Program-made: the position numbers and the translations under genes
From: Candidatus Woesearchaeota archaeon
GTDB lineage: Archaea; Nanobdellota; Nanobdellia; Pacearchaeales; GW2011-AR1
Length of the DNA: 64,000 nt
Assembly: GCA_964514585.1 (NCBI GenBank)
Contig: CAZETU010000001.1
Coordinates: 178,523-242,522 of the forward strand
Reading direction: 5' to 3'
Shown here: piece after piece, positions 32,277 through 51,948 of the stretch
Layout of the letters: each line of letters opens with the position of its first letter
Numbering within the stretch: position 1 is the stretch's first letter
The notes under the pieces: generated by a model
Databases searched by the model: none
Told to the model about the DNA's origin: nothing
What the model saw: the letters and a program-made list of their open reading frames with translations, nothing else

Positions 32277-32774
32277 CTAAAAGACCTTACAAACCTTCAT
32301 TCGAATTACTAAACTATCACTACCAGAAACAATACTTCTCTGCGAAGCCAAAACATTCCCCGTGCAATTCCCCTCATCTATCCTCAAAAGCCCCTGCGTC
32401 CCATCATCTTCCTTAACAAAAAAATCAAGCTGATAAGCATTCACACTTGCCTCACTTTCCATCAAATCCCCCAAAATATCACTCAGACTCTCATTTAGAT
32501 AATCACACGCAGAAACCCCCAAATTGCTGCACCGATCACCCTCATAACAACTCTTAAACAAATCCTCAACAGCATCATAATCCGGCTCGTAAACAATCGC
32601 ACAATCAGTCGTATATTTCATCAAAGCACTCAATATATGACTCGTCTCTAAACTATCGCTCTCATCCGGCCCATCTCTAAGCGAAATCACCAAAAAAACC
32701 ATCAACCCAACAACAACCAACACAACTATCAAAACAAACCCAACCATCTCCTGCTGCCCCTTATTGTTCCTCAT
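32277..32774 (-). CDS. Class III signal peptide (pilin-like) protein
   Basis: MRNNKG/QQEMVGFVLIVVLVVVGL. Confidence 0.7.
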   Translation of the reverse strand: MRNNKGQQEMVGFVLIVVLVVVGLMVFLVISLRDGPDESDSLETSHILSALMKYTTDCAIVYEPDYDAVEDLFKSCYEGDRCSNLGVSACDYLNESLSDILGDLMESEASVNAYQLDFFVKEDDGTQGLLRIDEGNCTGNVLASQRSIVSGSDSLVIRMKVCKVF

Positions 32775-33285
32775 GAATCTTCACCCCCACAACTAATTTT
32801 CCAATCTCACACCTCGGCTCACCACCCAATTCCTTCATATTCTTACAAATCGACACATAACTCGAATATTCCTTCACATTACTCTGCCCAGAATCATAAA
32901 TCTCATAATAATTACAATTAAACCCAGGACATTTCTTAACCTCATCAAACGCAGGATAAACCAAATAAACCTTCACAGAAGCAACAGGCCAAAACACCTC
33001 ATAAGCAGCACTAAAATCTCCAGTCATAATCCGAAGCTTATCCTCATCTAAAGTCATACTCTCACTAGAATCATAATTCAACTCAGGCATATCTGCAATA
33101 ACCCGCAAAGAAGAAATCGCCTTATCTCTCTGAAGCGAAGCAGCCCCACCCTGAATATCACCAACCCAAATCCCAAGAAAAAACAACCCAACTAAAACAA
33201 AAAAGAACATTACAGCAACTATCATAAACGCCATCTGCATAATTTTCATCTGCCCTCGCGCGCGACATTTCACCATAATCCACAC
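32761..33285 (-). CDS. Class III signal peptide (pilin-like) protein
   Basis: RARG/QMKIMQMAFMIVAV; C-terminal Cys pairs. Confidence 0.7.
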   Translation of the reverse strand: MWIMVKCRARGQMKIMQMAFMIVAVMFFFVLVGLFFLGIWVGDIQGGAASLQRDKAISSLRVIADMPELNYDSSESMTLDEDKLRIMTGDFSAAYEVFWPVASVKVYLVYPAFDEVKKCPGFNCNYYEIYDSGQSNVKEYSSYVSICKNMKELGGEPRCEIGKLVVGVKIHEEQ

Positions 33286-34238
33286 AACTCCATATCATTT
33301 CTCCTCTCAAGAGTATCACCTAAAGGCCGCAAATTCATCAAATCTTCAGTAGTAGCATTACCAACCAAGCCACTCCAAACAAACAAATCCCCTTTCAAAT
33401 TCGTATTACAGCCTCGAGCATCCATCAAATCAGCCTTCTCAACAAACATCTCCCCAATCTTCCCAGCTCGATACATCAACCGCTCAACATTACACTCATA
33501 AATATTCTCATCCGAAAAAATCGCAGCATACATCAAACTCCCAACATAATTCATGTCCTCACCCTTCTTCACAACAATTCCCTCATCATAAACCGAATCA
33601 CACTTAGACAAACACGATCCATAAACCGAAATATCACAATCACTCCCCTGTCCAAAACAAACATTAACAGCCTCAGGAAAATCACAGCCAACATTTTTCC
33701 CAATCGAAATATCATACTCTGAAACCCCAACATTAGGCATCCCAAAACTCAAAACCTCATCAGCAATCTCATCAGGTGCATCCATAAAACAATAATTCTC
33801 ACTCGTCAAAAAAATCAAATCCGAAACCTTATACGGAAAATCAAAAGGCTTAGAAAAAACATAATAATCCTTACCGGTATTCTTCTCCGAAGAGAAAATA
33901 TACTTATTATAAACGGAAGTAGCCCCGCCAAAATCGCCCCACTCACCATTCATCCCAGTTTCCGTCGCAACCGCAATATCATTTTTCCCGAAACCACCAG
34001 TGAAACAAATATTCCTAATCTTAGTTTCCTGTCTAAAAGCTATCTGACCAAAAGAACCCTCGCTAAAACCGGCTTGCAACGGATCAGTAATTATCGAAAT
34101 ACTTTTTCCAATTTCAGTATTTGACCCATAAACTTGAGTATCTCCCGTATTCATAGCCCCAAAAATCGCCAAGAATAAAATCGCTCCACCAACGATAATC
34201 GCAAATAACCACGCAAAATTAAATTGCCCCTTTTTCAT
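33270..34238 (-). CDS. Class III signal peptide (pilin-like) protein, Cys-rich
   Basis: MKKG/QFNFAWLFAIIVG. Confidence 0.7.
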   Translation of the reverse strand: MKKGQFNFAWLFAIIVGGAILFLAIFGAMNTGDTQVYGSNTEIGKSISIITDPLQAGFSEGSFGQIAFRQETKIRNICFTGGFGKNDIAVATETGMNGEWGDFGGATSVYNKYIFSSEKNTGKDYYVFSKPFDFPYKVSDLIFLTSENYCFMDAPDEIADEVLSFGMPNVGVSEYDISIGKNVGCDFPEAVNVCFGQGSDCDISVYGSCLSKCDSVYDEGIVVKKGEDMNYVGSLMYAAIFSDENIYECNVERLMYRAGKIGEMFVEKADLMDARGCNTNLKGDLFVWSGLVGNATTEDLMNLRPLGDTLERRNDMELCGLW

Positions 34239-50477: not shown

Positions 50478-51238
50478 TAAATCCCAGGCGCAAACGCACA
50501 GCTCCTCACAGCAAATTTAAACTCAATCCCACTCCGACGGTCAATCAATCGATACAACTTACTATCACTATAATCAACCCTCCGAATATCAAACTCAGGA
50601 TACAACAACATATACCCATTATACTCAAAGTGGCAATACTGCGACTCACTATTCACAACGTCCCGCGCAACCCTAATCAAATCGTAAATCGGCGAAATAA
50701 TTTTCGTATCAAAATTCTCAAAATCCTGAGTAGAACCTTCTCCCGTAACATGCAACTTCTTCTTCAAGCTAACTTCAACAGCACCAGGCAAAACATCAAC
50801 AGAATAACTAGCCGCTCCACCGCTAACATCAAAACCCCGATTCTCAAAATCCTCTCTCATAGAATCAAAACAATCCTGAACCGCGCCTTGAGTATCCGCA
50901 ACAATCTCGTCTTCTATTTCCATTTCCAACATCGGATGAATATTATAGCAACCCTGATAATAGTCCGCCTGATAACACAAATAATTCCATTCCTCATCCT
51001 GATACATTATCGCCCTTTTCGGTATAATCACGCCACCATTAGACAAAATAGTCTCAACAGATTCCTTTACAGCGTCACGAACACATTTGTCAACAGATTC
51101 CTTGGGGTTTAAATCAGAAGGCTCTATAGAAGTATTTCCACCCATAAAAAACAAAGCAGCTATAATCCCAGTTACAATCACGATTCCCAAAATTATAAAC
51201 ATCGTCACTTGCCCCCCTTTCTTCATTTCATTTACCAT
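50477..51238 (-). CDS. Class III signal peptide (pilin-like) protein
   Basis: KKGG/QVTMFIILGIVIV; paralogue of 45908-46669. Confidence 0.75.
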   Translation of the reverse strand: MVNEMKKGGQVTMFIILGIVIVTGIIAALFFMGGNTSIEPSDLNPKESVDKCVRDAVKESVETILSNGGVIIPKRAIMYQDEEWNYLCYQADYYQGCYNIHPMLEMEIEDEIVADTQGAVQDCFDSMREDFENRGFDVSGGAASYSVDVLPGAVEVSLKKKLHVTGEGSTQDFENFDTKIISPIYDLIRVARDVVNSESQYCHFEYNGYMLLYPEFDIRRVDYSDSKLYRLIDRRSGIEFKFAVRSCAFAPGI

Positions 51239-51948
51239 TAACTTAACTCCACATACAAATAATATGCCGTCATTTCCACCGAAGAGGATTCATTCGCATT
51301 CTCCGGAACAATCATTTGAAAATCATAATTAACTCCATCAAAACCTGTTTTCCCACCATCCTCTAATAGCGTTGCAAAAATAATATCCGAATTTGTATAA
51401 TCATATAATAAAATTTCTTCAAAATCTGATGTCTGTGAAGCATCATTTACATAAGTATAAATTGCGGAACAATTTTGAGCCCCTATCTCAACATCACCAA
51501 CTCGAATTATTTCAGTATTATTCTCTAAAAATGTAGAACTAATATTATCATTCCCCGTATGCTCAAGGGCCGCATCTTCTGCGTCTATGTGAGTCTGATT
51601 CGCACAATTAACCATTGACCACTCAACAGTTCCAGACGCTCTCGTAGCATAAACCTCACCACTCACACTAGCCAAAGACCAATCATAAATAGTTGATCCA
51701 CCTACATCATCCAACGTAAAAAGTCCATCAATCCAACCAACAAAAGCTTTCCAGTGAGAATTCTGGGTTGATGCAGTAACATTTACCGTTGTTATGTTAC
51801 CGCCAGAAACATTAATTATTTTCGATGCCGCCGTTGATCCGCTTTCATTAGCAGTAATATTGATTGAGTCAGGTCCAGTAGGTATAGCAACAACAAACGA
51901 AATAGACATAACCAAAATCATAACCAAAATCAAGCCCTTAAAATCCAT
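51238..51948 (-). CDS. Secreted acidic beta-rich hypothetical protein
   Basis: Signal peptide; many N-x-S/T sequons; coupled to the next ORF. Confidence 0.8.
   Translation of the reverse strand: MDFKGLILVMILVMSISFVVAIPTGPDSINITANESGSTAASKIINVSGGNITTVNVTASTQNSHWKAFVGWIDGLFTLDDVGGSTIYDWSLASVSGEVYATRASGTVEWSMVNCANQTHIDAEDAALEHTGNDNISSTFLENNTEIIRVGDVEIGAQNCSAIYTYVNDASQTSDFEEILLYDYTNSDIIFATLLEDGGKTGFDGVNYDFQMIVPENANESSSVEMTAYYLYVELS

Follow-up and report, generated by a model that had tools for sequence, protein, structure and literature searches.

A class-wide archaeal gene cluster of prepilin-signal proteins and giant cysteine-rich surface proteins, a candidate cell-contact apparatus

Woesearchaeota and Pacearchaeota are abundant archaea with a minimal metabolism that are thought to live attached to other cells, and no attachment structure has yet been tied to genes in them. 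We analyzed a window (the whole stretch of 64,000 nucleotides under study) from the 1.04-Mb genome of a Candidatus Woesearchaeota archaeon of the Pacearchaeota (DPANN), DNA of which was found in salt-lake metagenomes. The locus in question, at 32277-52130 of the window, is the Pacearchaeal form of a cluster that occurs class-wide in Woese- and Pacearchaeota, and it consists of two tandem modules and four small proteins with class III (prepilin) signals. Each module pairs a 253-amino-acid (aa) class III protein with a Cys-rich surface protein that exceeds 1200 aa and has immunoglobulin (Ig)-like domains at its C-terminal end. Taken together, the evidence supports a surface assembly made through the prepilin pathway, its giant disulfide-rich and Ig-like proteins being borne by pilin-like units, and it makes the cluster a good candidate for a cell-contact apparatus. 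The more specific reading, that the locus encodes a type IV pilus-related stalk or tip complex displaying giant adhesin-like proteins, is one to which we give an even chance. What is new is a nine-gene, class-wide cluster of unannotated surface proteins linked by signal type to the prepilin pathway, together with natural fusions that indicate which of its parts belong together and so provide concrete targets for follow-up. Our literature searches gave no description of this cluster. The analysis used Pfam, NCBIfam and PDB sequence searches, tblastn, Kyte-Doolittle hydropathy, AlphaFold, Foldseek, VIA-align and the ESM Atlas.

All genes but one at 32277-52130 lie on the minus strand. Read 5' to 3' on that strand, the locus encodes a 66-aa winged-helix protein, a 236-aa secreted protein, 253A, the 1262-aa giant A, 253B, an MNT/HepT pair, a 593-aa protein, two class II aminoacyl-tRNA synthetase (aaRS)-like proteins and a methyltransferase (alongside these, the plus strand encodes an S66 peptidase), a 171-aa lipoprotein, an 810-aa protein, a 425-aa zincin and finally the 163-, 322-, 174- and 165-aa proteins. 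Nine of these genes form the core, namely 253A, giant A, 253B, giant B (593 + 810 aa), 163, 322, 174 and 165, and three insertions lie within it: the MNT/HepT pair, the aaRS/methyltransferase/peptidase island with the 171-aa lipoprotein, and the zincin. An earlier note on this DNA had treated some 19 kb as one unit, which is right for the strongly conserved core and wrong for the stretch as a whole, where the core is mixed with the insertions. Where it had described translational coupling at many junctions, gene overlaps of -1 to -16 nt were confirmed (-1 nt at 236/253A and at 253A/1262, -4 at HepT/593, -16 at 322/174 and -14 at 174/165). The core genes are the following, with a slash marking the signal junction.

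50477..51238, minus strand: 253A, class III-signal protein (GG/QVTMF) with an alpha/beta ectodomain, first module (family alignment, AlphaFold)
46689..50477, minus strand: giant A, 1262 aa with 64 Cys (445 homologues, all hypothetical)
45908..46669, minus strand: 253B, paralogue of 253A with a KG/QVTMF signal, second module (30% identity to 253A)
43533..45314, minus strand: N-terminal half of giant B, 593 aa with 44 Cys and its own Sec-type signal (homology to giant A residues 117-579)
36255..38687, minus strand: C-terminal half of giant B, 810 aa with 23 Cys (homology to giant A residues 704-1260)
34277..34768, minus strand: 163-aa small class III-signal protein (RG/QQTMGMPF), minor-pilin-like (signal, orthologues)
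33270..34238, minus strand: 322-aa class III-signal protein (KG/QFNFAW) with 10 invariant Cys (family profile)
32761..33285, minus strand: 174-aa small class III-signal protein (RG/QMKIMQMAF) (signal, orthologues)
32277..32774, minus strand: 165-aa small class III-signal protein (KG/QQEMVGF), Gln +1 and Glu +3 invariant (orthologues)

The link to the prepilin pathway is made by the N-termini. The six minus-strand open reading frames (ORFs) that had been read as class III proteins all have the expected layout, with a short basic leader, [KR/G]G, a Gln and about 25 hydrophobic residues. The sequences read KG/QQEMVGF (165 aa), RG/QMKIMQMAF (174 aa), KG/QFNFAWLF (322 aa), RG/QQTMGMPF (163 aa), KG/QVTMFIL (253B) and GG/QVTMFII (253A), and the Kyte-Doolittle hydrophobic segments span residues 5-37, 12-48, 4-32, 7-43, 12-43 and 7-38, respectively. 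253A reads KKGG/Q in full, and most of its orthologues have K[GA]/Q. The lack of Glu at +5 also holds for all six ORFs; in the 165-aa family a Glu at +3 is invariant instead. Calling these signals non-canonical was an overstatement, because [KR]G/Q is already known as an EppA-type cleavage site: Methanococcus maripaludis EpdA is cleaved at RG/QI, and Gln +1 matters for EppA cleavage, the substrates of which carry an acidic residue at +5 (PMC4187195). In the 253-, 165- and 174-aa families position +1 is always Gln, the members of the 322- and 163-aa families have either Gln or Glu there, and a [KR][GA]/[QE] junction is common to the four small families. Since the Gly/Ala-Gln junction is invariant, a plain signal anchor is an unlikely reading of these N-termini.

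The distribution of the signal in the genome was examined by a FlaFind-like scan, as the earlier note had proposed. Within the 1.04 Mb, 15 ORFs have the [KR][GA]/Q signal type, and six of the 15 are clustered in these 19.7 kb, against an expectation of about 0.3. Of the remaining nine, six adjoin two ATPase/TadC loci on contig 2 (several of these with Glu +5), two adjoin the prepilin peptidase gene, and one is a 621-aa paralogue of the 253-aa family that lies beside pilin-like genes.

The machinery that such signals call for is encoded in the genome, entirely outside the window: one PF01478 (A24) prepilin peptidase, three T2SSE ATPases and four T2SSF matches, so that the peptidase, ATPase and TadC genes whose location had been left to check could all be placed. 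The PF01478 match is at G000:C1:54047-54391, in a 275-aa ORF at G000:C1:53585-54412, and lies above the cut-off. PF01478 was found in 117 of 121 class genomes (120 others and this one, G000), which is at odds with a preprint in which type IV pilus components are said to be missing in DPANN (10.1101/2020.05.14.094862). The second contig also holds a canonical pilus locus (L037, G000:C2:65000-78000) with a 566-aa T2SSE ATPase, TadC-like genes and three small KKA/Q pilin-like genes, two of them with Glu +5; a fourth gene, KRG/Q with Glu +5, lies about 3.5 kb away, and the locus further encodes an 836-aa class III protein with a vWA domain.

The large proteins flanked by the class III genes are rich in Cys, as had been reported, with 64 residues in giant A, 44 in the 593-aa protein and 23 in the 810-aa protein, compared with none in the neighbouring S-layer protein. 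Giant A has an N-terminal anchor (residues 5-28), a Cys-rich domain (about 115-600), a Gly-rich hydrophobic region (about 640-780) and, at about 785-1262, a Cys-knot and Ig-like repeats. The 593-aa protein aligns with residues 117-579 of giant A (28% identity, E 2e-50) and the 810-aa protein with residues 704-1260 (35% identity, E 2e-90). By these alignments giants A and B are paralogues, and giant B is split in the window. The 593- and 810-aa parts are joined as one ORF of 1308-1443 aa in G005, G009, G012 and G011, and giant B is likewise divided in G015 and G010. The 810-aa protein has a giant-type N-terminal anchor, a Thr/Gly/Ser-rich linker, two or three hydrophobic segments and a C-terminal part with a Cys-knot and Ig-like repeats. 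In the sequence of the giants D-x-[ST]-[AT]-P boundaries recur, as do Y-x-K-C-x-D-x-x-G-N motifs, and this pattern would fit four tandem Ig-like domains, in agreement with a lead from the ESM Atlas, where only hypothetical Nanobdellota/Woesearchaeota clusters were found, with Big_13 on 10% of one of them.

Some features of the giants' N-termini should be mentioned separately. They share the motif KK-x-x-A-[SG]-F-E-L-x-L-M-x-x-S-x-F-A-F-S-Y, in which the Glu at the helix start is nearly invariant, and a P-x-I-P-x-x-S-A motif is conserved just before the Cys-rich domain. A few giant orthologues start with KRA/Q or KKA/Q, and some homologues have plain Sec signals. We considered a class III reading for the giants' own N-termini as well and treat it as uncertain, as position -2 is not basic and some of the homologues have those plain Sec signals.

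That the 253-aa unit and the giant belong to one structure is indicated most strongly by natural fusions between the two kinds of protein. In other families (G246, G338, G042, G269, G157) single ORFs of 1123-1305 aa join them in the order K[GA]/Q class III N-terminus, 253-like domain, distal Cys-rich half (corresponding to residues ~305-585 of the 593-aa protein) and C-terminal domains of the giants. There are about 45 such fusion proteins in the database, and the named ones are from Woesearchaeota. They have 46-51 Cys and only one hydrophobic segment, which is N-terminal. As they are encoded in one ORF, the 253 unit and the giant would be parts of one structure, headed by a class III signal. 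The window giants are anchored at their own N-terminus and also contain, further inside the chain, a hydrophobic and Gly-rich region of about 140 aa. This region is missing from the fused forms and is a lineage-specific trait.

One fusion, P0241, was modelled with AlphaFold from a 48-sequence alignment (predicted local distance difference test (pLDDT) 87.6, predicted template-modelling score (pTM) 0.80). The pTM, obtained for the single fused chain that was modelled, and the fusions themselves argue for an association of the 253-aa unit with the giant. The model is divided as follows.

Residues 4-42: N-terminal helix
Residues 50-260: domain with the helix and strand order of the 253A model
Residues 270-560: Cys-rich region
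Residues 568-595: helices at the place where the window giants have the Gly-rich region
Residues 605-760: beta-rich part
Residues 764-848: helical insert
Residues 851-1123: Ig-like sandwiches

Fold searches with P0241 matched generic Ig/FN3 arrays, among them integrin alpha, alpha-2-macroglobulin, SiiE and cadherins, as well as the Ig domains found in ice-binding adhesins and in S-layer proteins. The highest-scoring match (Z 9.5, root-mean-square deviation (rmsd) 2.9 A over 99 residues) fell within residues 880-1123 of the model. The lists of matches contained no fusogen, pore-former or PilY1-like propeller.

The two members of the 253-aa family in the window are 30% identical, and across 60 sequences of the family Gln +1, C52, C88 and C123 are invariant and the leader varies in both length and sequence. 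We found 246 database homologues; the best 120 of these 246 are 59-72% identical, and the named ones among them are hypothetical proteins from Pacearchaeota, 'Nanoarchaeota' or 'archaeon' bins. The AlphaFold model of 253A (60-sequence alignment, pLDDT 88, pTM 0.75) shows a helix at residues 8-32, a low-confidence linker at 33-44 and then an alpha/beta domain, and thus has the N-terminal helix that a pilin-like protein should have. With Foldseek the model gave no match at E <= 1e-3, and the best VIA-align hits (Z up to 5.5, rmsd 2.9-4.0 A, 76-86 residues) were in the noise range of the tool with no pilin listed. The fold searches with 253A gave neither a pilin nor a PilN/PilO-type protein, nor any other clear match. 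PDB sequence and profile searches returned nothing for the giants, the 253-, 322- and 174-aa families or the fused form, and none of the pilin-like or giant proteins has a family annotation in Pfam, NCBIfam, PDB or the ESM Atlas.

The 253-aa family has a 621-aa paralogue (KRG/QVTIF) at G000:C1:14662-19248 (L040), where it is flanked by two class III-signal proteins with lectin-like Laminin_G_3 domains; its counterparts are about 610-690 aa in many genomes. In G012 (L025 5598-6346) 253B is read as two overlapping ORFs of 108 and 156 aa, possibly through a frameshift or an assembly error.

Among the small proteins, a 322-aa profile built from nine sequences had matches in 58 of the 121 class genomes, often 5-15 kb from a 253 match on the same contig (G072, G152, G097, G138, G103, G154). 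A relationship between the 322- and 253-aa proteins was rejected, because profile-profile comparison aligned the signal only. The 163-aa profile gave a single, weak PDB match, to the alpha1 helix of S. sanguinis PilE1 (E 0.03). We discounted it as evidence for a pilin, since a spurious match of the 165-aa profile to a helix of a G-protein-coupled receptor (GPCR) scored better (E 0.008). The 174-aa gene of G015 (L024 6186-6638) was recovered by tblastn in two pieces in different frames, which may be due to a frameshift or an assembly error.

Conservation of the cluster was assessed by tblastn at ten loci from relatives. Throughout the genus the order is PCNA, (wHTH), (236), 253A, giant A, 253B, giant B, 163, 322, 174 and 165, followed by a divergent HVO_A0114-like winged helix-turn-helix (wHTH) gene, the S-layer protein and two small membrane proteins. 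The pair of 253 and giant is kept in four other families of the same taxonomic order (G027, G031, G032, G034), with the small genes downstream also kept in G031 and G032. The gene cluster is thus conserved across the genus and, more loosely, in other families. The 253 profile had matches in 280 of 301 genomes sampled over the phylum, all belonging to one class (the count includes the unpublished G283 and G284, both positive; without them it is 278 of 299).

From these results we propose the following model. The single A24 prepilin peptidase would cut each leader after [KR][GA], leaving Gln at +1, and the hydrophobic N-terminal helices so freed, those of all six class III proteins (four small ones and two of 253 aa), would then be assembled into a short pilus-like stalk or tip complex by one of the ATPase/TadC platforms encoded on another contig. 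Each 253-aa unit would hold its giant, the disulfide-rich and Ig-like domains of which would be shown outside the S-layer and there contact another cell or surface. We infer the cleavage, assembly, display and adhesion and the host as target. The subunits and tip or adhesin components of a filament or host-attachment apparatus suggested in the earlier note are backed by the signal, the conservation, the machinery genes and the fusions; no solved pilin was matched, and the filament and the host are the inferred part of that suggestion. None of the three refuting checks that the earlier note had set overturned it.

Several observations weigh against a pilus-related stalk or tip. The acidic +5 residue typical of EppA substrates is absent from all six ORFs, and none of the cluster proteins matched a pilin model (Pfam E <= 0.1; NCBIfam E <= 1). 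The small pilin-like genes at the ATPase/TadC locus of the same genome are likewise without a pilin match in Pfam. The ectodomain of 253A matched no solved pilin, and the low-confidence linker parts it from the helix. The cluster lacks an obvious major pilin. Profile searches found no prepilin peptidase, ATPase or TadC gene in the window, as had been claimed, and none of the three adjoins the cluster in any of 15 related loci. The giants' predicted N-terminal anchors and internal Gly-rich regions would hold them in the membrane and not on a filament tip. Finally, the cluster is about as conserved in sequence as the S-layer protein, and adhesins specific to a host are not usually conserved to that degree. 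It is because of the lacking ATPase/TadC linkage, acidic +5 residue and pilin fold, and because of the anchored giants, that we keep our estimate for the stalk or tip complex at about the midpoint.

The main rival, which we consider rather unlikely, is a fixed envelope complex associated with the S-layer (an anchor, a spacer or a pore collar) with a housekeeping role, for which class III processing and membrane extraction would be used without a filament being formed. The near-universal occurrence of the 253-aa family in the class, the S-layer-like conservation and an S-layer gene adjacency kept even in another family (G032) are what one would expect of such a complex, as are giants with membrane anchors and a Gly-rich hydrophobic region and a cluster without major pilin or ATPase. 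There is also a precedent in the Sulfolobus bindosome, the class III proteins of which reportedly do not form long pili (PMC3047682). However, four small class III proteins in a row are the usual pattern of a minor-pilin set, the fused forms have no membrane anchor besides the class III helix, and Ig-like arrays with disulfide-rich domains are typical of outward-facing binding proteins. That the locus is not pilus-related at all, and that ordinary signal anchors or Sec signals belong to unrelated secreted and membrane proteins that share a neighbourhood, appears improbable. No pilin family model or pilin structure was matched, some giant homologues have plain Sec signals, and the sole pilin match was no better than a spurious one. 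Against this, a leader that varies in length but always passes into Gly/Ala-Gln directly before the hydrophobic run is unexpected for signal anchors, the signal type is confined in the genome to pilus-related contexts, and the cluster and its fusions are conserved over deep divergence.

The hydrophobic region of the giants raises a further alternative, a cell-to-cell channel or fusion device in which a Gly-zipper region would enter the partner membrane, supported by a pilin-like stalk, to form a cytoplasmic feeding bridge. We regard this as very improbable. The region of about 140 aa is rich in Gly, Ala, Ser, Ile and Leu and lies between two Cys-rich, presumably extracellular halves, one giant homologue is named 'glycine zipper family protein' by NCBI, and Pacearchaeota have a minimal metabolism and are apparently strongly host-attached (preprint 10.1101/2020.05.14.094862). 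However, the absence of the region from the fused forms shows that it is not a core feature, no fold search returned a fusogen or pore-former, and an anchor in the archaeon's own membrane would be a simple explanation for it. A combined contact and feeding organelle, in which a pseudopilus of the small proteins and the 253-aa units would push the giants through the S-layer and the Gly-zippers would enter the membrane of the partner cell and open an intercellular channel, strikes us as just as far-fetched.

By kind, the cluster is a variant of the known prepilin-type pilin/adhesin gene sets, and its closest analogies appear to be tip complexes of minor pilins with a large adhesin, modular pilins and the Methanococcus epd locus. 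The tip of the bacterial type IVa pilus consists of four core minor pilins and the large adhesin PilY1, and the type II secretion system (T2SS) has a GspH-I-J-K tip. Similarly, the window has four small class III genes in a row and very large surface proteins, and here several small pilin-like genes are co-encoded with a large surface protein in an order kept across the genus and families. The analogy to PilY1 has been drawn for archaea in a paper that also covers archaeal type IV pilus loci in which minor pilins occur together with adhesins and S-layer proteins (PMC4858521). By this analogy the small proteins would be expected to prime or cap a filament and to carry the adhesin. The type IVa tip and the cluster are, however, not homologous; the window giants are Cys-rich with Ig-like arrays in place of beta-propellers and are self-anchored, and in other lineages the 253-aa partner forms a single protein with the giant.

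The M. maripaludis epd locus (epdA-C, eppA) is a precedent for pilin-like operons without ATPase and platform genes, as its ATPase, its membrane platform and its major pilin have their genes at other places (PMC4187195). Both loci have the [KR]G/Q motif with Gln at +1, several small pilin-like genes and genes without homologues, and assembly genes located elsewhere. Unlike the Epd locus, the window cluster has neither an acidic +5 residue nor a peptidase gene, and it has two giant Cys-rich proteins and a 253-aa alpha/beta family; a sequence relation between the two loci was not detectable. The fusions, for their part, resemble the modular pilin PilB of S. sanguinis (PMC8179133) in joining a class III signal and helix to a large ectodomain, and they resemble the 836-aa class III vWA protein of the same genome in carrying a large functional ectodomain. 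Unlike in modular pilins, the module in the window is divided between two proteins, a pilin-like one of 253 aa and a giant with an anchor of its own, and its ectodomain families are unannotated. The Sulfolobus bindosome of sugar-binding proteins (PMC3047682) is similar in that class III proteins form an envelope assembly for which long pili are unnecessary; it differs in that the window has no solute-binding domains, and no ATP-binding cassette (ABC) transporter or Bas-type assembly genes nearby.

The remaining genes of the locus are the three insertions and the genes at the two ends of the core.

51930..52130, minus strand: 66-aa winged-helix protein upstream of the core, a possible regulator, also in G015 and G011
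51238..51948, minus strand: 236-aa secreted protein with 10 N-glycosylation sequons, accessory first gene, among the relatives examined found only in G015
45311..45929, minus strand: MNT/HepT toxin-antitoxin pair (domain matches), an insertion absent here in the relatives examined, GC 0.28-0.29
38722..43477, both strands: island dividing the giant B halves, with a 171-aa Tat-type lipoprotein, the S66 peptidase (plus strand), two aaRS-like proteins and a methyltransferase
34883..36160, minus strand: 425-aa secreted zincin (HELGH motif, weak M10 match), an insertion without counterpart in ten related loci
31788..32144, plus strand: HVO_A0114-like winged-helix protein beside the 165-aa gene (PF25212, E 3e-17)

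The guanine-plus-cytosine (GC) content is 0.28-0.29 in MNT/HepT and 0.30-0.35 in the three minus-strand island genes, compared with 0.39-0.44 in the core, and tblastn found neither MNT/HepT nor the island or the zincin at the window positions in any of the ten related loci. In G015 (L024 10506-11146) an MNT/HepT pair lies exactly between the giant B halves, and in the window the pair separates 253B from the 593-aa gene. Insertions of this kind may be connected with the splitting of giant B. The S66 peptidase of the island is MccF/LdcA-like. The zincin, which sits between giant B and the small genes, has a C-terminal HELGHAIGLGD and a weak match to Peptidase_M10 (E 9e-5). Next to the 165-aa gene, 27746-32144 encodes the S-layer protein (735 aa), two small proteins with an anchor at the N-terminus (196 and 228 aa) and the divergent HVO_A0114-like wHTH. 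The S-layer, 196/228-aa and wHTH genes flank the cluster genus-wide, and the adjacency of wHTH and S-layer gene is also seen in G032, which belongs to another family.

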